This document shows positions 27,663-55,511 of a stretch of 64,000 nt of DNA, one piece after another. Both the position numbers and the translations under genes were made by a program. Below the pieces are notes generated by a model. The model was not told the DNA's origin. It did not search any database and saw nothing but the letters and a program-made list of their open reading frames with translations. The stretch is from Lytechinus pictus (Eukaryota): NCBI RefSeq assembly GCF_037042905.1, contig NC_087250.1, positions 24,306,001-24,370,000 of the forward strand, read 5' to 3'. The number at the start of each line of letters is the position of its first letter. Position 1 is the stretch's first letter.

Positions 27663-30600
27663 CAAACAAACACGTAACTCACGTATAAGACACGCGACTG
27701 TATGAACTTATTCCTAATATACTTCTGCATGCTCTGTTTTGAAGTTTCTGCAATGGCTCGATGTATTTTGCACACGCTGAACCATATACTATATCACCAT
27801 AGTCAAATATAGGGAGGATAATGGCATTGTACACAATTTTCAAATTTTTCTGATCAATATAGTGACGCAGTCGGGCTAATAAACGTATGAGTTTGCTTAT
27901 TCTAAAACATATATATTCGATATGCAAATTCCACTTTAAACTGGGATCTAACAACATGCCAAGATATTTGGTTGATTCCACTTGTTTTATATGTATTCCA
28001 TTTACATTCAAGTTCAACCTATTACATTTACCAATCATTTTTCCAGAGCCAAATAGCATACATACTGTTTTATCACAGTAAAGACTTAGTTTGGAATCAC
28101 ACAACCAGGTGTTTATTCTTTTCAGCTCAGAATTCAGTTGGGTTTCAATAGTTGTTACATTTTTATGGGAGAAATAGACTACCGTGTCATCAGCATATAG
28201 GTGAATAGAGCAATTTTTAATACGATGTACGATATCATCAGTGTAAATTAGGAACAAAAGCGGACCCAGTATAGATCCTTGAGGGACACCGTAGTTTATA
28301 TCGGAGTCCGCAGAAGTAGGTGAGTTAAATTGGGTATATATACGACGACCCTTTAGATAACTTGAAAACCAAGATAAGCAAACAGAAGATACACCAATAT
28401 TAGATAATTTCTTTAAAATAATATCAGGATCCACAGTATCAAACGCTTTGCGTAAGTCTATAAAGACCGCACCAGTGTACAGACCGTGGTCCATTGCATT
28501 CAGCCAAGCATCGGTAACTTTGACGAGTGTTGTAATAGTCGAGTGATTTTTCCTAAATCCTGACTGGGCTTTAGACAATACATTGTGACATTTCAAATAT
28601 TCTGTTAATTGTATCTGAACGAGTTTCTCGAGGATTTTGGAAACAGAAGGTAATATGGATATCGGCCTGTAGTTGTTAGGTGACTTTTTGTCACCCGATT
28701 TATGAATTGGTACAATTTTTGATTTCTTCCATCTTGTAGGAAACACGTGTTCAGATAATGATCTATTAAAAATGAGTGTGAGAGATGGTATAATAGTAGG
28801 CGTTGCCATTTTTCACATCATTAAAGAGATATCACCAACACCAGTTGATTTTTTATTATTCAACCCCAAAATTATCTTCTGAACATCATCCTCGGTAACT
28901 GGATTAAATTCAAAACACGATTGTAGAGGGCTATTGTTAACATAGTCAGAATCTGCACGATTATTCGTTGCAGTTGGAATGGCAGAAGCCAGTTCAGAAC
29001 CAACATTAGCAAAGAAATTGTTGAAGTTTGTAGCTAACAAATAATCATTATTATCTTCAGTAGCACCGTTTTTACATGATTTTTTAGAAGGCAATAAAGG
29101 TTTGAGTACAGTCCAGACATTCTTGCTTGAAGTAGTGGAAATATTTTGTAATTGCTTTGAGAAATTAGCCTTTTTTGCTTTCCTACACATTTTGGTAACC
29201 AAATTTCTTGTTTTACGATACATGTTCATAACACTTTCGTCACTGTTCTTTGATGCTTTCTTTTTCAATTCATTTCGTTTCGTCATCGTTTTCTTAATAT
29301 CTGCATTTAGCCAAGGAGCGGGTTGGTGACGAATGCGTTTCTTTTTAATTGGGGCAAACTCATTTATAGAATCCATCAAAAAAGATTCCCATAAATTAAC
29401 AGCATCGTCAATGGTTCTAGAAGCACTTATTTCATTCCAAGAAAGTTTGGACAAATGACTATGAAAAGATTCTAGATTCACGTACTTAAGATTTCTATAG
29501 TTGATTGTATTAGGAATATGATTAGATCTAAAGTTCAAAATCCAAAAGCACAAGTCATGGTCACTTAACCCGAGACTGATTACACCATGAGATTTAATAT
29601 TCTCAACTGCGTTTGTGAGCATGTGACCTATTAAGCTCCTAGTATTGTGAGTGACCCGAGTATAAAGATCACAATTTATCTGTTGCATTGAATACAAATT
29701 ATTTATTTCTTCGTAACGCTTCATAACATTTGACTTGAAACTCTTACTTATATCAAAGTTTACATCACCCATCACAATGATATTTAAGTGAAAAGCATCC
29801 GCAAACGAAAGGACATGTTCATACTTATCTAAAATATCAGCTTTACTGTCTGGTGGGCGATACCATGAAATGAATAGGAATGGAGTGGAGAACTTAGGTC
29901 GCACTTTAATTAATAAGAGTTCAAGCGGGTCAAGAACTTGTGAATTTACTAATTCATGCGATATTGAACATTTAATGTAAATAGCAACACCGCCCCCATT
30001 ACGATTACGGTCTTTACGTATTAGTTCAGTCCTGTATACGAAGTTCATTATCATGAATTGACTCATCTAGAAGAGTTTCATTAAGTGCTAGGATATTTAT
30101 GTCGTTATCATGCAATAAAACTCGAATTTCATCAATATTTCTGTATAGACTGCGAATATTAAGGTGTGCACATTTAAAACCATGATTATCAAAATCGGAA
30201 AACTTCATAGTCTGACTTCATAGTCTGAACCGAGTTAGAAAGGCCCACATTTATTTGACTTTTTTGTAGAGTCACAACTTTTTTATGCTTGTAACTTGTA
30301 TATATATTTGATTGAAAATCTGCAAAAGGTAAGTATTGAAATATGCACTTTGTGCATTCCCAATTTGGGAATTCATGGTTAATATCATCATATAGCTCAT
30401 TTTTAACTCCTGCGCACGATGAGTGCATCCAAACACGACAATGTGTACATTGTAGTCCTCTTTGATTGTTTTTAACTGGTTTATCACAAGAAACACAAGG
30501 GTATTGTATAGTCATAACATTAATATGATAAACTGGATATGTTCAGGGAAAGACAAAATTCAAAGTATACAAAAGTATACTGAAACGAAAGGTATAACAG

Positions 30601-43046: not shown

Positions 43047-43850
43047 TGTTTCATCAGATTTCCCTTTCGATTTTCAGTGAAATACAATCCCCTTTGTTAA
43101 CATTTTTGTGTGAGTTTCTGGCATTTACATATGAACTGTCTATCTTTAATCTCTGATGAACACGTCGTTCACCATTAACTTTTGCACAGATACTCTTGAA
43201 CATTTTCACAGTACCTCATAGTCGATGCTGCATATCTTGCATTGCTTTTCTATAAAACCACTACAGGATTGTGACTAAAAACATGTATTTTATGCTAAAC
43301 AAGTGCCTGCAAATCAGGATGTGCTGGACCAAAATTAAAGCTAGACACCAGTTTTGTAACATTTATTCGCAAAATGTTTTAAGGGTAACATTTCACTGAA
43401 ATTTGCTGTGAAAATCTCTGTTGAAACCAAAACCAAAACCCCAAACTTGGAAAAAGTGGGTTTTGTACCTTTCGCCTTCGATGGACCATAACTTTATGAC
43501 TCGTGACAATAATTTGTGACCCAAATAAGGTGTCAGATGAGTTACTCAAATATATAGAATAGAAATCCCAAGAATAAATCATGCATTCTTGATATACCTG
43601 ACTTCTGAATTTCGGTTACCTTTTAAAAAAAATACACCCTGTATGTTAGTGCTCGGTTTATTGATAAAATCAGCTTGCGCTATGCGCTTGCATATTTTTT
43701 TGTGAAACTGTAACATATTCTACCAATATTAATTCTCACAAATAGTCCGTAAAATGTCCCGTTTCATGTCATCAATTAAGAAAAGTCATCTCTCGCTTTG
43801 CGCTGGTATTATTTATGTAGTTCTAAGGAATCTTATAAGACAGTACTTAA

Positions 43851-44439
43851 AGGGGAAAGAAACCTTTGGATCACGTAGGCTTGTGACGGAACAGAAAAAT
43901 CAAAGAATAAGAACAAAGAAAGTTTGAGAAAAACCAGACAAATAATGAGAAACTTATGAGCATTTGAATATTGCAATCACTAATGCTATGGAGATCCTCC
44001 CATTGTCAATGCAACAAGGATGTGTGATGTCACATGTGGACAACTTTCCCTTTGATGGACTATAAAATACCCCCCAAATGTCTATTTTTGCTTTTTCTTA
44101 TGGTGGTACAAACTCTTTATCCATAATGTGTTCTTTAATAATCTGTACTACATGCCCTCATATAGAAAGAACACATGATCAACTGATATATGTGATAAAA
44201 GAGGCAATTTAAGTGAAATATATATATACTAAAGTAATGGAGAGAGTTGTTCACAAGTGACATCACACATCTTTGTTGCATTGCCAATTGGAGGATCTCC
44301 ATAGCATTAGTGATCGCTATATTCAAATGCTCATAACTTTCGCATTATTTGTCCGATTTTTCTCAAACTTTCGTTGACCTGTTTCTTTGATTTTTCTGTT
44401 TTCACACAAGCTATCTTGTTCAAAAGGTTTCATTCTCCT
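43851..44439. mobile_element. TTAA-site palindromic MITE (Kolobok-like)
   Basis: ttaa|AGGGGAAAGAAACCTTT...AAAGGTTTCATTCTCCT|ttaa with long inverted arms. Confidence 0.75.
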
Positions 44440-44685
44440 TTAAACTTGAATCTCTATAGGACTCGCTCGAGCAGCCGTTCGAAGAAAAATGTGACTAGTT
44501 TTTCAGTCCTTTCTCTTATTGGACAAATCTGGTTCCGCCCCTGACTACATTTATGTTGTACAAAAAGATTTGAGATATCCATTTCATCTCAAAGTCAAGA
44601 TTACCAGTCGTGTCTTAATGCAACATGCGAGCAGATGTGTGAAATGACCCCTTCATTATACTTTTAAATGATTTTTTAAATGCAG

Positions 44686-44752
44686 TTTAATCAACGTTAT
44701 CAGGCCGGGGTCAGTGAAACAAATCAACTCCTCTAAGATGGCTTTTAAACAG
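44686..44752 (+). CDS. Calponin/transgelin-family gene, coding exon 3
   Basis: tgcag acceptor; (H)LINVIRPGSVKQINSSKMAFKQ; gtaagt donor; 67 nt, phase 2 to 0, fits exon 2. Absent from the ORF track. Confidence 0.92.
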
Positions 44753-45143
44753 GTAAGTACGTTATTTTGTTACTAATACTTGAGTATTCGAGTTATCCCA
44801 AGTGTCTAATCGGGATCCGCCGATTATTCGAACAGTGTAAATTTTGCTAATCGATTACCGATCGGCGGCAAGCCATCTGAACCATTCGATCAATCGGTGT
44901 TTACTCCCAGGCCTATTATTTACAAATAATGTGCACAGTATAATAATAATTTTGTGGTTAATAGCAATTTCGTGACATCAAATTCATTTGGTGTCTTTGC
45001 TGTATTCTAAATGAAGATAAAATTGTTCTCAGAATACCAATTCGGAGAGATTTTAAAGGTATTTTATCTCACTGATTTTAACAGAGATAAACTATTTTAT
45101 TTTACCTGAGATAAAATGGATATCAGAATACCATAGGGTTAGG

Positions 45144-45333
45144 GTTAGGCGTTGTGGCGTGCGCCTGTCATCCAAGCTGTGGGGAAGTTACAAATTGATG
45201 CAGAGGTTCGAAGTTCGAGCCCTGGTCACATCTTTCAGATGGTTACGTTAAAGGTCGGTCCCAGACGTAAATAATCATATCTGATTGATACACGTCTGAC
45301 AAAACTCAAATACACACACACACACACACACAC
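45144..45333 (+). mobile_element. Candidate SINE: 7SL(Alu-domain)-like head, Pol III B box, Deu-like segment, (CA)n tail
   Basis: GGCGTTGTGGCGTGCGCCTGTCATCCAAGCTGTGGGGA resembles the 7SL 5' end; GTTCGAGCC at 45213-45221; TCTTTCAGATGGTTACGTTAAAGGTCGGTCCC at 45231-45262; (AC)n at 45312-45333. Confidence 0.7.
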
Positions 45334-45559
45334 CACCCCAGGTGCTAAAATGGTTGAGTTTGCATTGTTACATCACACCTTTCATGACCAGAAGGAAATA
45401 AACGCTTTTTTGTTGAAGCAAGGTGACAGGAACATGCCGTCTGTTAGTGTAAAAGGAAAACATTGAATTGTATTCACTTACCTGTTTGGAGTTTTACTAA
45501 AATGAGTTTTACTAAAATCTGAAGAAGAAAAAACTTTGCGAGGCCTTAAGTCACCGGGG

Positions 45560-46968
45560 GTACTTCGATTTGGGTTAAACGGGGATGTGCGGCTGGAGGC
45601 TCAAAACCCATACCTTTATTATTTAAAAGTCATTTTGGCAAAAAGGGTACCCATAGTTAGGGAGTTTCATCTAAAAAGTGGCGATTCATCCAACAGATAT
45701 CTTTCATTTTTCCTTTAAAAAACGCGTTTTGTTTTCGCTTTCCCCGTACGTATTGTGCTTTTGACTCGCAGTAACCTCGCCTTTTAGAAAGTCTTAATTT
45801 AGCCTAAGTTGCGATCATCCGTGTGATTCTTTGTTCAGAAGTATGTTCCTGCAAACGCTGTTCTGGTTCCTGGTCGTGTTAATTATCACATTATAAAGTT
45901 TAAAGTGCATAAAATGAGTTTTGTTTCTATTTAAAGACAATTTGTTGCATTTGAACCAAGTAGACAGTTTACATAATTCATCATTTAAAGTAGATACTAC
46001 AATTTCAAGTTTTGGGTGAGAATAAAAAATATTGGTATCATCTGCAAATAGGATAAAAGATAATAAGGGGGAAGTTTTCGATATATCATTGACGTATAAT
46101 AGGAAAATTAGCGGCCCCAAAATTGACCCCTGCGGCACACCACATTCAACAGTTTTAAAGGTTGAATCTATTTCATTAAATGTAACATATTGTTGTCTAT
46201 ATTTGATAAATAATATTGTTTGTTTGTTTGTTTTATTTTCGTATATAAAACAACAGATACAAAGTACTTCGATTTGGGTTGAACGGGGATGTGCGGCTGG
46301 AGGCTCAAAACCCATACCTTTATTATTTAAAAGTCATTTTGGCAAAAAGGGTACCCATAGTTAGGGAGTTTCATCTAAAAAGTGGCCATTCATCCAACAG
46401 ATATCTTTCAATTTCCATTAAAAAACGCGTTTTGTTTTCGCTTTCCCCGTACGTGTTGTGTTTTTGACTCGCAGTAACCTCGCCTTTTAGAAAGTCTTAA
46501 TTTAGCCTAAGTTGCGATCATCCGTGTGATTCTTTGTTCAGAAGTATGTTCCTGCAAACGCTGTTCTGGTTCCTGGTCGTGTTAATTATCACATTATAAA
46601 GTTTAAAGTGCATAAAATGAGTTTTGTTTCTATTTAAAGACAATTTGTTGCATTTGAACCAAGTAGACAGTTTGCATAATTCATCATTTAAAGTAGATAC
46701 TATATACAATTTCAAGTTTTGGGTGAGAATAAAAAATATTGGTATCATCTGCAAATAGGATAAAAGATAATAAGGGGGAAGTTTTCGATATATCATTGAC
46801 GTATAATAGGAAAATTAGCAGCCCCAAAATTGACCCCTGCGGCACACCACATTCAACAGTTTTAAAGGTTGAATCTATTTCATTAAATGTAACATATTGT
46901 TGTCTATTTGATAAATAATCTTGTTTGTTTGTTTTATTTCCGTATATAAAACAACAGATACAAAGTAC
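45560..46968. repeat. 704-bp tandem duplication carrying a - strand Crack-like RT fragment
   Basis: Units start GTACTTCGATTTGGG at 45560 and 46264, with GTAC microhomology at 45560/46264/46965. Each encodes GVPQGSILG..LFADDTN on the - strand. Confidence 0.9.
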
Positions 46969-47059: not shown

Positions 47060-50000
47060 ATATTCAGCTGCAATAATGCATTGCTGCTGGTCTTCCATGG
47101 AGCCAGTTTACTTGAAAAAGGGATATGATTACCATAAAGTAAAGGAAGTTGACCATCAGATATAGAAGTGAAATCATTAAAAACAAAGAAAAATCATATA
47201 ACCTACACCTACCCCCCTCCCCCTCCCCCGGTGCAAATCAGTGATTTAACTTTATTTAGTACAGATATATTTCAAAAATGTATTTTAAAGGAATTGAAAG
47301 TGGTGACATTACGCACGCACATAGGAATTCTGTTTAATTCAGAGGCAGCTCGGTGAGAGAAAGATCTTTTTTTACTATTTGTTCTAGGTCTGGGTAAACA
47401 TACATTATTTGAATTTCTAAGAGGGTAAGGAGTAGCTTTTGTATGAAACACATTTTTAATATATTCAGTGGACATGTTGTTACTAATCTTATACATGAAT
47501 AATATTAAGTGAGTATACTGTCTCTTTTGAATAGTGTCCCAACCCAGAATAGAATGAATTTGAGAGGTTGAAGTGTGTGAACAGGTGGTCAATTTTCAAA
47601 ATTATTCTTCCAGCTCTATTTTGAATTTTTTGAAGTTGGTCAAGTAAAGATTTGTTTGCAGATTGATAGATAATGTCACCATAATCAAAATGAGGTAAAA
47701 TTATTGAGTTATATATTAACTTTAATTCTTTAGCCGTGCAATATAACCATTCATTCTCGCCAGTTTTTTTACATAAATAATTTACGCGATAGTCCCACTT
47801 CATGTTTTCATCCACAAAGACACCTAGATACTTAAAGCTATTCACTTGAGTCAGTAAATGACAGTCAATTTTTAGTTGTAAATGCTGTGATCTTTTAAGC
47901 ATTTTAGGTGTTCCAATCTACATGCTTATAGTTTTATCATAGTTTATTTTCAAATTATTCCTGTTCATACAGGCAGATAGACTTTCCAGTTCCGTATTAA
48001 GGACGAGTTCGATAACTCTAATATCGTTATGTGAGAAATATACTGCGACGTCAGCATGAAGGTGTACGGTGCACTCTTTAAATACAGAAAATTATATCAT
48101 CAATAAATGAAAAGAACAATAAGGGTCCAAGGAGAGATCCCTGGGGTACTCCCTTAAATGACACTTTCTTCTGATAAAATTCCATTAATGGATGTACGTA
48201 TTCTTCTATTAGTCAAATAACTTTTGAACCAATGCAATTCATCACCAGATATACCAGTATTTTTAAGTTTGGATAAGAGAATTGCATGATCGACCAGGTC
48301 GAAAGCCTTTTGAAGGTATATCATGATTACGATATATTGCACAAACCTCGTCCGACCAGTTCTGGTGGAGGCATCTGCATCATCCACCGTTCAACGGTCA
48401 AAGTGAGTCTTCAAGACTACAGCAACTTTCAGTCATTCGAGTTGATGGACTTCACCATTCGTACTAATGGTGCATCGGTGTTTCGTGTCTTTGCCATCTA
48501 CAGACCACCTCCATCATCAAAGAACAAACTAAGTTTTTCTTTGTTCTTGAAGGAATTTTCGTCACTTATGGAATCTGTAGCAATAGTTGACAACATTCCA
48601 CTTTTAGTTGGTGACTTCAACATACATGTAGATGACCGCAACGATAAAGATGCTACCACTTTCCTCAATACATTGGATGAGGCTGGTTTTCAGCAGCATG
48701 TTATGTATTCCACACATAGAGCGGGGCATACGCTAGATCTGCTGATAACCAGAAGGGTCGACGAAGTGGTCCCTGCGATTGATTCCATTAGGGGTCTTCC
48801 TTCTGATCATGACTGTATATGGTGCACTATTAACTTGGAACGCCCGCCCGCCACCAAGAAGCTTGTCACTTGCAGGAAGTTTCGTGATATCAATATGGAC
48901 TTATTTAAGTCAGACATTCTGACATCTTCTCTTACATCTTCGCTCTCATCGTGTTCTTCTGAAGCAGTTCTACAGTACAATTGTGTGCTGAAGGAACTGT
49001 TGGATAAGCACGCACAAATTCAATCATCTGTTGTGTCCTTAAGACCACGGGCTCCTTGGTACAACGACTCCATTCGACAGGCTAAGCGAGTTAAACGCCG
49101 TGCAGAGAGAAAGATGATGAAATCAGGCCTAGAGATCCACAGGCAGATATACCAACAACTCTGCAAGACCTACAATGACGCACTTACAGAGTCAAAATCA
49201 CAGTTTCTGTCAGCTGAAGTTGTAGAGTGTGACACAAAACAACTTTTCAAGTTCGTCCAAAAGCTGTCTTCCCCCGAGCGAGCTTCTGTGCTCCCCGATC
49301 GAGATTCAGATGAGTCACTAGCACATGACTTTGGTGAGTTCTTCGAGAGGAAAATTCATAAAATTATTGAAGGATTTGACCAAGTTCCATGTCAATTAGG
49401 GGAAATTCCTGGATGTGATAGTGAGTTTTCCTCGTTTGAGCCGGTATCTGAAAACCAGGTTAGAAAAGTGATCGGTGTCATGACTTCCAAATATTGCCAG
49501 CTGGATCCTCTTCCAACATGGTTGGTTAAAGGGTGTTTGGGTGAATTGGTACCAGTTATCACATCCATCGTAAACGGCTCGCTGTCTTCTGGGAGTGTTC
49601 CTGACAGCTTTAAGGTCGCTCAAGTAGTTCCCCTGCTGAAGAAACGTGGTTTGGATCCTAATGATCTTCGGAACTATAGACCTGTGTCCAACCAAATGTT
49701 TCTTGCAAAAGTTCTTGAAAGAGTTGCGAGCTTCCAGTTGAAAGCGTATCTAGAAAATAACTGCTTGTTTCCCATAATGCAGTCGGCCTATCGTTCGTTC
49801 CACTCAGCGGAAACAGCGCTCGTGAAAGTAATGAACGATCTCTTACTGGCTGTTGACAAGGGTAATGAGGCGATATTGGTTCTACTAGATTACAGTGCTG
49901 CCTTTGATACCATTGACCATGGAAATTTGATCTCCATCCTTGAATGTAGATATGGTATCAATGGTGTTGCTCAACAGTGGCTGGTTTCCTACTTAGAAAA

Positions 50001-50660
50001 TCGGAGACAGAGGGTCAAAGTTAACAACGCTATCTCAAAGACTTTTCCTCTCTCACAGGGAATCCCTCAGGGCTCCGTCATTGGTCCTTTGGCGTTTGCA
50101 TTGTACACCGGTCCTCTATCGCAGGTCATTAGCGCACATGAAGGAATCAAGCACAAAACCCAACATGGTCAAGCCCCTTCTTGTATTACCGACCTTCTCT
50201 CATCCAGGATCCCGACAACCTCCATTCGACTCCGATCTTCCACACATCTTCATCTGCAACTGGCCCAAGGACCCAGAGCTCGGACAAGGTATGGGAACCG
50301 AGCATTTAGTGTTGTTGCTCCAAAGCTTTGGAATGACCTTCCCATAGAATTGAGGGATGCCCCGTCATTCGAATCATTCAAAGCTTCTCTCAAAACTTCC
50401 CTTTACAATTCTTCCTTTAAGTTTTAAGTTAATTTTGTCAATATCAAACGATTATTCCTAATTTATTTCTTGTTTGTTTATGTGTGTTATACTGTTCAAT
50501 GTTATTGATGTATGCTATTTAATCGTTTTGTAAAGCGCTTAGAAACACCATGTATTAAGCGCTATATAAATACAATGTATTATTATTATTATTATATAAA
50601 AATAGCCCCTGTATACTGCCCATTGTCCGTATAATGAAACCAGTCATCCGTAACCTTTAG
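47060..50660 (-). mobile_element. Degenerate 5'-truncated Crack-like LINE split by an L2 insertion
   Basis: - strand LKVTDDWFHYTDNGQYTGAIFI (~50597-50660) continues as YLQKAFDLVDH at <=48320, then FKYLGV and PRPRTNSKKRSFS. Confidence 0.85.
48320..50595 (+). mobile_element. 5'-truncated L2 LINE with in-frame internal RT deletion
   Basis: APE motifs (IYRPP, VGDFNIH, GHTLDL, SDH); RT to GIPQGSVIGP, then a jump to HGQAP with no YADD; L2-type 3' end gtaaagcgctt...aagcgctatataaat and (TAT)n tail. Confidence 0.9.
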
Positions 50661-54963: not shown

Positions 54964-55511
54964 AACGCTGAGCTTCCCCCCTCGCGGAACCCTCATGCAG
55001 GACAACCCAAGGCGAGAGTCGTTCTTCTATATCTGGGAGCAGCCTCTCACAAGATTCAGAGGATTTTGAGAGAAGCCGACATTGAGGTTCGTCATAGTTC
55101 CTCAAATAAGCTTCAATCTGCCCTCACTACCCATAAGGACAAGCGCAACTCCAAGGACCTCCCTGGAGTTTACCGAATTCCTTGTGAATGCGGTAAAGTT
55201 TACATCGGAGAGACGGGTCGTTCCTTTAACACTCGGATTAAGGAACACAAGGCCCATGGTAGGAGAGACGAGAGGGACAAATCTGCAATCATCGATCATG
55301 CCCATACGCATGATCACCTGATTCTTTGGGATGAGAGTAGACTGGTCACCCGTGTCCCCTACTGGCATCAGCGGAGAGTCAGAGAAGCGTTGGAGATTGA
55401 GGAACATAACACTGTTCCTCAAGACAGCGGCCTCCAACTCAGCAATATCTGGCTTACCGTTCTAGACAAAGAGGCTAATTTGCCTAATTAGCCTACCCGG
55501 ACGTTCCACAC
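54964..55511 (+). mobile_element. Penelope-like element, 5'-truncated: linker plus GIY-YIG endonuclease
   Basis: Frame open from 54964: ...VVLLYLGAASHKIQRILREADIEV...GVYRIPCECGKVYIGETGRSFNTRIKEH...SAIIDH...REALEI; stop at 55491. Confidence 0.9.

Follow-up and report, generated by a model that had tools for sequence, protein, structure and literature searches.

SINEs (short interspersed elements) with a head copied from 7SL RNA, the RNA in the SRP (signal recognition particle), have been described as Alu, B1, Tu, and their relatives, as SINE1-1_EBu of hagfish, and as Urop of the shrew mole (PMC13023118, PMC7245038), and all of those described keep both terminal 7SL regions after a central deletion of ∼183 nt, according to the account of them given in PMC13023118. 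Independent lineages of this type are described as extremely rare, the same sources naming those of the supraprimates and a single family each in hagfish and in a shrew mole. In 2020, a Repbase curator stated that well-defined SINE1 elements occurred only in Euarchontoglires and in a new hagfish family (PMC7245038), and the SINEBase authors wrote in 2026 that supraprimates and hagfish were the only taxa with known 7SL SINEs, the shrew mole being also reported (PMC13023118). For Alu itself, a 46-nt 5′ domain is reported to be necessary for retrotransposition, to associate with SRP9/14, and to be able to promote retrotransposition (Moldovan, Yin, and Moran 2025, PMC12199147). Here, we analyze a locus in a stretch of 64,000 nt (termed the window; positions 24,306,001 to 24,370,000 of contig NC_087250.1), for which an earlier note, made from the letters alone, had proposed a 7SL-derived SINE in an invertebrate. 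We hold with high confidence that window positions 45148 to 45333 are one copy of a composite SINE with a 7SL-derived head in a sea urchin genome, for which a mechanism of movement is proposed below. Its parts are the following.

45148..45188, + strand: 7SL RNA-derived head, element nt 5 to 45, which covers helices 3 and 4 and the U-turn in the 5′ part of the SRP Alu domain (RF00017 match).
45189..45224, + strand: linker with no significant 7SL similarity and no tRNA match at an E value of ≤10, in which a tandem duplication of 7 bp (GGTTCGA, 45205-45211) precedes the B-box-like GTTCGAGCCC (45213-45222).
45225..45262, + strand: candidate 5′ block of a conserved SINE domain of the Deu/Nin-DC type, pattern GTCAC.TCTTTC.GATGG..ACGTTAAAGGTCGGTCCC, from a by-eye comparison with printed rows.
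45262..45298, + strand: 3′ stem-loop, with an outer stem of 7 bp (CAGACGU/ACGUCUG; in DNA, CAGACGT...ACGTCTG) and an inner stem of 6 bp.
45299..45333, + strand: terminal ACAAAACTCAAAT, then the (CA)n tail, with the CA run at 45312-45333.

The element has a length of ∼170 nt plus the tail and contains no TTTT. It is present where the earlier note had placed it, except that the first four bases of the proposed interval (45144 to 45147) are flank. The 5′ end given in that note was not the true one either: lining up 30 copies revealed that the full 5′ end of the family is ACTGGGCG, which is lost from the window copy. Most of the lined-up copies have ACTG (often AACTG) before GGCG, the common 5′ end being (A)ACTGGGCG, and the window copy, from which the first 4 nt (ACTG) are gone, is slightly 5′-truncated. 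At the other end, a CA run of variable length closes all 30 copies. In the window copy, the head reads GGCGTTGTGGCGTGCGCCTGTCATCCAAGCTGTGGGGAAGT, the linker reads GGTTCGA-AGTTCGAGCCC, and the Deu/Nin-type block reads GTCACATCTTTCAGATGGTTACGTTAAAGGTCGGTCCC, with ATCTTTCAGATGGTTACGTTAAAGGTCGGTCCC located at 45230 to 45262. Besides the absence of ACTG, five substitutions separate it from a consensus-like copy (locus L005), one of which changes the U-turn from the family form, UGUAAU, to UGUCAU; the hairpin stretch is identical in the two. As had been noted, there is a single copy in the window (one match), and no target-site duplication is clear around it.

The window copy is probably an inert passenger, which was 5′-truncated, mutated in its U-turn, and later carried in a segmental duplication. 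The segment that holds it (at least 3.2 kb; 43567 to 46968) is duplicated 63.6 kb upstream with 99.3 to 99.6% identity (twin at G000:C6:24286017-24289212, locus L002), and the length of the CA run differs between the twins. Within the duplicated segment, a piece of ∼570 to 710 bp is itself repeated (45560 to 46130 and 46264 to 46968). A telomere-like TAGGGTTAGGGTTA at 45134 to 45147 directly abuts the truncated 5′ end. We drew nothing from it, since GGGTTA occurs at most 4 nt from a head only three times genome-wide (two independent events), where about one case is expected by chance according to our estimate.

The genome-wide searches covered the assembly to which the window belongs (812 Mb). 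Evidence on the host came from a sperm Bindin gene, found in two pieces (G000:C13:14344741-14346105; PF02084, 53.1 and 236.7 bits) and in none of 14 control genomes, which identifies an echinoderm, most likely a sea urchin, and agrees with the invertebrate host of the earlier note. No match to mitochondrial COX1 was found in the assembly.

We then compared the head with the 7SL genes of the same genome. Seven full-length genes were found (contigs 10 and 1 have three each, and contig 12 has one), with scores of 272 to 283 bits for the Rfam model RF00017 (Metazoa_SRP). Over nt 1 to 31, the element is identical to the contig 12 gene (31/31) and differs by one base from the contig 10 gene and the others (30/31). 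Extending the comparison to nt 1 to 46 gives 38 to 42 matches in 47 to 49 columns, and the first 60 nt of the element have 72 to 78% identity to the species' own 7SL, with the A-box region (7SL nt 6 to 15, human numbering) being identical. The consensus-like copy (L005, 1497 to 1546) matched positions 1 to 44 of RF00017 with 31.2 bits (E = 2e-7), and the window copy, when 45144 to 45193 was scanned alone, matched positions 1 to 49 with 19.0 bits (E = 6.9e-4). On the Rfam model, the CCUGUAAUCC turn and helices 2 to 4 are pairable; in L005, all three pairs of helix 2 and all three of helix 4 are standard, and the single nonstandard pair, in helix 3, is also present in the 7SL genes of this genome. 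The similarity to the SRP RNA 5′ Alu domain described in the earlier note is borne out by the covariance model (which scored the consensus-like head significantly) and by the species' own genes, and the pairing pattern is compatible with that model. To become visible, the match requires either a scan of the 50-nt head by itself or the genome-wide RF00017 scan, whose subthreshold matches of 32 to 35 bits are SINE copies; a scan of the whole window against Rfam at the gathering score returned no family, and a permissive scan of 45050 to 45450 returned no SRP match at an E value of ≤10. These sequence comparisons lead us to conclude that 7SL RNA of the species itself was the source of the head, which places it under the description of SINE1 as elements with a 5′ region derived from 7SL RNA. 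The SINE and the contig 12 gene share T3 and GGAAGT, the other genes having C and GGAGGT, and, when these differences are read onto the pairs of the model, both partners of one helix 2 pair are changed. On the basis of these shared features, a contig 12-like 7SL gene is the probable source.

SINE copies were also found beside 7SL genes. Each of the contig 10 genes has an older copy (81 to 92% identity) in the same orientation, ending ∼36 bp before the gene start (L031, 877-1047 and 1290-1460; L035, 1294-1464; L036, 1315-1464), the two copies of L031 being located in a tandem unit of ∼413 bp, and the 7SL genes on contigs 1 and 12 have no such copy. This proximity could matter for the evolution of 7SL promoters or for conversion between SINE heads and genes. 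Just past the T-run terminator of the 7SL gene in L031 (1806 to 1845), we noticed CCTGGTTCGAGTCCAGG, a perfect T-arm-like hairpin in which ARAGORN found no tRNA.

The same chimera is repeated all over the genome. A first look at the assembly gave 1352 candidates, and the 40 that were scored are 94 to 100% identical, nearly all with the same start base. The 19-mer that spans the junction between 7SL and non-7SL sequence (GGGAAGTTACAAATTGATG) has 1020 exact matches genome-wide, on both strands and across chromosome-scale contigs, with differing flanks. The body motif TTTCGGATGNNNACGTTAAA has 1139 exact matches and a 23-mer from the head (GTTGTGGCGTGCGCCTGTAATCC) has 851, including the seven 7SL genes; for each of these words, the reversed pattern served as a control and gave 0 matches. 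Since exact words survive in roughly half of the copies at ∼3% divergence, we estimate that this young family has on the order of two thousand copies. We evaluated the architecture in a positional sample, composed of the first 30 places of the body motif along contig 1. The same 7SL-type head was found in 27/30 loci, one locus was cut inside the head, two were 5′-truncated, and none of the 30 had another type of head. The 24 full-length copies of this sample have a median identity of 97.3% to the reference copies (range, 87 to 100%), and three older copies (82 to 87% identity) keep the same architecture. Two subfamilies can be distinguished by the presence or absence of the 7-bp GGTTCGA tandem duplication and by AGCTGTGG versus AGCTATGTGG; 8 of the 30 loci are of the "dup" type, to which the window copy belongs, and 22 are of the "single" type. 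Retroposition left a trace at the insertion sites, as the flanks of 38 copies match over 2.42 nt on average versus 1.11 nt in mismatched-flank controls, and a mean as high as the one observed was obtained in 0/200 shuffles. Several further flank matches run into the first A/AC of the element or into its CA tail.

SINEBase counts as SINEs those interspersed sequences of <1 kb that have 100 copies or more and are ≥60% identical to tRNA, 5S, or 7SL RNA along a stretch of 60 nt or longer (PMC3531059), and this family, shorter than 1 kb and with >1000 dispersed copies, falls within that definition through the 72 to 78% identity of its first 60 nt to 7SL. A uniform rearranged or chimeric structure has been used to tell SINEs from 7SL retro-pseudogenes (PMC7245038), and such a structure is what we observed in many copies. 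The sequence is therefore not a single-copy one, a possibility that the earlier note had left to be checked, but a young family in which a uniform chimera was amplified to >1000 dispersed copies.

Some copies are arranged in tandem. Head-to-tail arrays occur with a spacing of 171 to 176 bp at G000:C2:17634282-17634680 and as two 190-bp units in L039 (1500 to 1875), and four copies are found every ∼2.53 kb at G000:C1:22736738-22744400; the SINE has thus seeded or joined tandem repeats. A tandem satellite of ∼120 bp (units with GGGTCTGGAGGAAAGACTACGCTATA...) hosts several independent SINE insertions (L063, 1680-2100, and the flanks of L019 and L027), and in L063 a full copy is inserted directly behind the CA tail of a 5′-truncated one. 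What looked like a long subfamily in L056 was rejected, being due to a nested and unrelated repeat of ∼163 bp (1330 to 1493). This dispersed, MITE-like repeat (miniature inverted-repeat transposable element) has 566 first-look candidates genome-wide, with 81 to 85% identity among scored copies, sometimes in inverted pairs.

The linker holds a B-box-like GGTTCGAGCCC, which agrees with the B-box consensus. Of the tRNA-like part announced in the earlier note, this motif stands but the tRNA does not, as ARAGORN found no tRNA gene in the window and the Rfam tRNA model had no match at an E value of ≤10, either on 45050 to 45450 or on nt 39 to 94 of L005. Hence, the head lacks the recognizable tRNA similarity that characterizes SINE2. 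The body starts with GTCACGTCTTTCGGATGGTGACGTTAAAGGTCGGTCCC, and its block GTCACG..TCTTTCGGATG..AC.TTAAA....GGTCCC is arranged as in printed Deu/Nin-DC rows. We compared them by eye only, with Lottia_Nin, Lsa_Nin_1, and Nla_Nin (supplement of PMC4758252) and with the Deu row of BivaMD-SINE1 (supplement of PMC4824008). In this comparison, 26/33 columns are identical to the 5′ block of Nla_Nin (PMC4758252) and ∼30/43 to the BivaMD-SINE1 row (PMC4824008), two weaker downstream blocks (ACGTAAA... and ...CTG.CAAAA.T) are colinear with the published rows, and the published "variable region" of the domain is missing from the element. The Deu-like body of the earlier note is thus supported, by eye, and it looks like a shortened Deu/Nin-DC-type domain. 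The published descriptions state that Nin-DC is part of the Deu domain and list echinoderms among the phyla with Deu and Nin domains. Candidate tRNA-headed Nin-DC relatives retrieved through TTTCGGATGRGACNNNAAA (15 matches, ten of which have one common word) were rejected, since the four examined, drawn from those ten, lie in a 98%-identical repeat and are not SINEs. This dispersed repeat (loci L092 to L095, on contigs 2, 5, 8, and 12) contains TTTCGGATGGGACCGAAAA, the word being present in at least 10 copies, and, with no family search made, reads as coding and retrotransposon-like.

The 3′ hairpin of L005 has a folding energy of −13 kcal/mol (z = −2.88), which was equaled in 1/200 shuffles, and is followed by ACAAAACUCAAAUA(CA)n. 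A hairpin and (CA)n form the layout that would be expected for recognition by the reverse transcriptase of a stringent LINE (long interspersed element), and we regard the hairpin as a candidate recognition site for that of the partner LINE. Genome-wide, the hairpin word has one match outside the context of the SINE body, which is a 5′-truncated SINE in noncoding DNA. In the window, remains of LINEs encode reverse-transcriptase domains (RVT_1 at 131.6, 61.4, and 54 bits) and endonuclease domains (Exo_endo_phos at about 22 to 26 bits), and there is an open reading frame for a GIY-YIG endonuclease (23.9 bits), which we read as Penelope-like; the list of LINE remains and GIY-YIG reading frame comprises 27679-30066 (−), 45815-46333 (−), 48277-50427 (+), and 54964-55491 (+). 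None of these shares the tail of the SINE.

From 5′ to 3′, the element consists of ∼45 nt of the 5′ end of the species' own 7SL (the 5′ half of the Alu domain, with helices 2, 3, and 4, the UGUAAU turn, and the A-box region), a linker of ∼35 nt with a canonical-looking B box, a probable Deu/Nin-DC-type domain in shortened form, and a hairpin before the (CA)n tail. In the mechanism that we propose, the A box in the 7SL part and the B box downstream would direct transcription by RNA polymerase III. The 5′ piece of the transcript would fold as the 5′ part of the SRP Alu domain and bind SRP9/14, which would bring the RNA to ribosomes that are translating the partner LINE. The LINE reverse transcriptase may then recognize the 3′ hairpin and (CA)n, and the RNA would be copied into new sites by target-primed reverse transcription. 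Transcription, SRP9/14 binding, LINE capture, and target-primed reverse transcription are each inferred from features of the element.

Several points weigh against the composite, mobile SINE that we favor. The SRP match is far below the Rfam gathering score of 70 bits, as expected for a piece that covers 45 of 299 positions. The thermodynamic fold of the head is no better than that of shuffled sequences (z = +0.57, versus +0.24 for real 7SL), and minimum-free-energy folding gave z values between −0.55 and +1.0 for the head, for nt 1 to 94, and for the complete element. As such folds are uninformative for both the SINE and real 7SL, the Alu-like fold is argued from compatibility with the Rfam model only. 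Target-site duplications are short, and only 2 of the 38 copies reach at least 5 nt under a strict boundary rule. A tRNA-headed sibling with the same body was found neither in the 30-locus sample nor by pattern search, which leaves the fusion without its parent, and BLAST of the tail against the window and 95 loci (∼350 kb) found no LINE with the SINE tail, returning only SINE copies and one truncated copy. Transcription, SRP9/14 binding, and current mobility are proposals drawn from the letters of the element, and the family may already be present in Repbase under a tRNA-SINE label.

How the head came into being depends on where the similarity to 7SL ends. Past nt ∼46, homology was not significant in local or colinear global tests: when the rest of the element was aligned locally with the rest of 7SL, 32 to 63 of 1000 shuffles were as good for the contig 10 gene and 53 to 293 of 1000 for the contig 12 gene, 958 to 996 of 1000 shuffles scored as high against the last 60 nt of 7SL, and the colinear global alignment of nt 47 to 103 with 7SL nt 45 to 100 was equaled by 243 to 1205 of 2000 shuffles. 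By these alignments, the element holds only a 5′ Alu-domain piece of 7SL (∼45 nt) and does not keep the two terminal 7SL regions of the described 7SL SINEs. The sharp fall near nt 46, where similarity goes from 100% to the background level, favors, as the most likely origin, a fusion of the 7SL 5′ end to a preexisting Deu-type SINE via template switching or recombination, and a chimera of 7SL and an older SINE was likewise proposed for the hagfish family (PMC7245038). If, instead, the whole first ∼100 nt came from 7SL nt 1 to 100, the B box would have evolved in place, as in Alu, and selection would have kept only the first 45 nt. Such a descent fits the MAFFT alignment, in which the SINE and 7SL are colinear over 100 nt with few gaps and 66 to 70% identity overall, with GAGCCCTG / GAATCCTG opposite 7SL GAGTCCTG, GATGGTGA opposite TATGGCGA, and the SINE B box facing the place of the B box in human 7SL (76 to 86, PMC7245038), and it also gains from the local alignments of the remainder with the contig 10 gene. 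However, the colinear global test and the local tests with the contig 12 gene do not favor it, and full identity over nt 1 to 31 that becomes near random past nt 46 suits a fusion better than uniform descent, so we consider descent of the whole head unlikely. We see very little room for a tRNA-derived head, as in an ordinary SINE2, whose 7SL likeness would be due to chance or A-box convergence: the B-box-like motif is present and Deu/Nin SINEs are described as normally tRNA or 5S headed, but the head is identical to one of the genome's own 7SL genes at 31/31 positions, has an E value of 2e-7 for the SRP model, and gave no tRNA with either ARAGORN or the Rfam tRNA model. Pseudogene fragments of 7SL, human Alu contamination, or an assembly artifact would be a still more far-fetched source of the matches, given that the same junction is present 1020 times, on both strands of chromosome-scale contigs and between different flanks, the Deu body and (CA)n tail following each time, and that the head matches the genome's own 7SL genes, which depart from the Rfam metazoan consensus at several positions.

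A different question is whether the fused, 7SL-headed family is new. It could already be catalogued, for example as a Repbase "SINE2-x_SP" (perhaps the DeuSINE SINE2-3_SP or a relative), with only the 7SL origin of its head having gone unnoticed. The sea urchin families listed in PMC3747384, namely, SURF1/SINE2-4c_SP, the DeuSINE SINE2-3_SP, with CR1Y_SP as its partner, and SINE2-8_SP, all have "tRNA" heads, so that a Deu/Nin SINE is known from sea urchin, and a young family with >1000 copies would be hard for curators to overlook. Conversely, the statements of 2020 and 2026 cited above place no 7SL SINE beyond the named taxa (PMC7245038, PMC13023118), we found no such report in the full-text literature linking 7SL with SINE and with invertebrate, sea urchin, or echinoderm, and routine Repbase screening would normally flag an Alu-like 5′ end of this kind. 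On balance, prior cataloguing seems a doubtful but appreciable possibility, in which case the biology would be as described and the family would not be a new discovery. We regard the element as a real 7SL-derived SINE variant, the first seen in an invertebrate and probably new. We advance more tentatively, as a conjecture with somewhat less than even prospects, that it is an uncatalogued and independently born 7SL SINE, the first in an invertebrate, which has only the ∼46-nt SRP9/14-binding domain and uses a stringent LINE, neither L1 nor RTE, for its hairpin and (CA)n. If this is true, the minimal Alu 5′ domain would be a transferable module, able through ribosome docking to raise retroposition by LINE machineries that differ widely, and evolution would have found this module repeatedly across deuterostomes.

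With each new lineage of 7SL SINEs, the question has been raised of why SINEs derived from 7SL are so successful, and a family in echinoderms would widen their range to invertebrates and add another kind of LINE partner. The piece retained in the sea urchin corresponds almost exactly, in length and position, to the minimal Alu domain of 2025 (PMC12199147), and the 3′ half of 7SL, kept in all other 7SL SINEs, is missing. The presence of the one and the absence of the other would make this family a natural test of SRP9/14-mediated ribosome docking as a general means to hijack LINEs, for which sea urchin embryos are an experimentally tractable system.

Compared with Alu, B1, the other SINE1 elements of Euarchontoglires, and Urop, the echinoderm element has a similar 5′ end copied from 7SL, with the A-box region and a putative Alu-domain 5′ fold, a high copy number, and, presumably, transcription by RNA polymerase III and LINE-dependent retroposition. 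Those families are described as having both 7SL ends, poly(A), and the use of L1 (PMC7245038, PMC13023118), whereas the echinoderm element has only ∼45 nt of the 5′ end, no 7SL 3′ part, and a body of apparent Deu type that is followed by a hairpin and (CA)n. The hagfish SINE1-1_EBu (Kojima 2020, PMC7245038) is similar in being an independent 7SL head outside mammals, in its proposed origin as a chimera of 7SL and an older SINE, in its non-poly(A) tail, which implies a stringent LINE partner, and in its copy number (2363, PMC13023118). It is described with both the 5′ and 3′ regions of 7SL, a body from RTE 5′ untranslated regions, and a bipartite RTE-derived tail with (AAC)n, in contrast to the missing 7SL 3′ region, the Deu/Nin-DC-type body, and the (CA)n tail found here. 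The minimal 5′ Alu domain of 46 nt (PMC12199147) has a similar length and the same 5′ end as the piece kept in the sea urchin (nt 1 to 45/46, SRP positions 1 to 44), the two sequences being unaligned; the former is an engineered fragment of human Alu that was studied with L1 in HeLa cells, and the latter is a natural element that would use a different LINE. With the DeuSINE/Nin-DC superfamily, including SINE2-3_SP, the element shares by eye the conserved block at the start of the body, but the published members are described with heads derived from tRNA or 5S rRNA, and the sea urchin element has a 7SL head and a domain that seems shortened. Finally, the Tu types of tree shrews and GarnAlu also have a composite promoter region in which 7SL-derived sequence is joined to sequence of other origin (PMC7245038); they are described as complete 7SL-derived monomers combined with tRNA-derived SINEs in mammals, whereas the sea urchin element combines 45 nt of 7SL with sequence that has no tRNA similarity beyond the B box.

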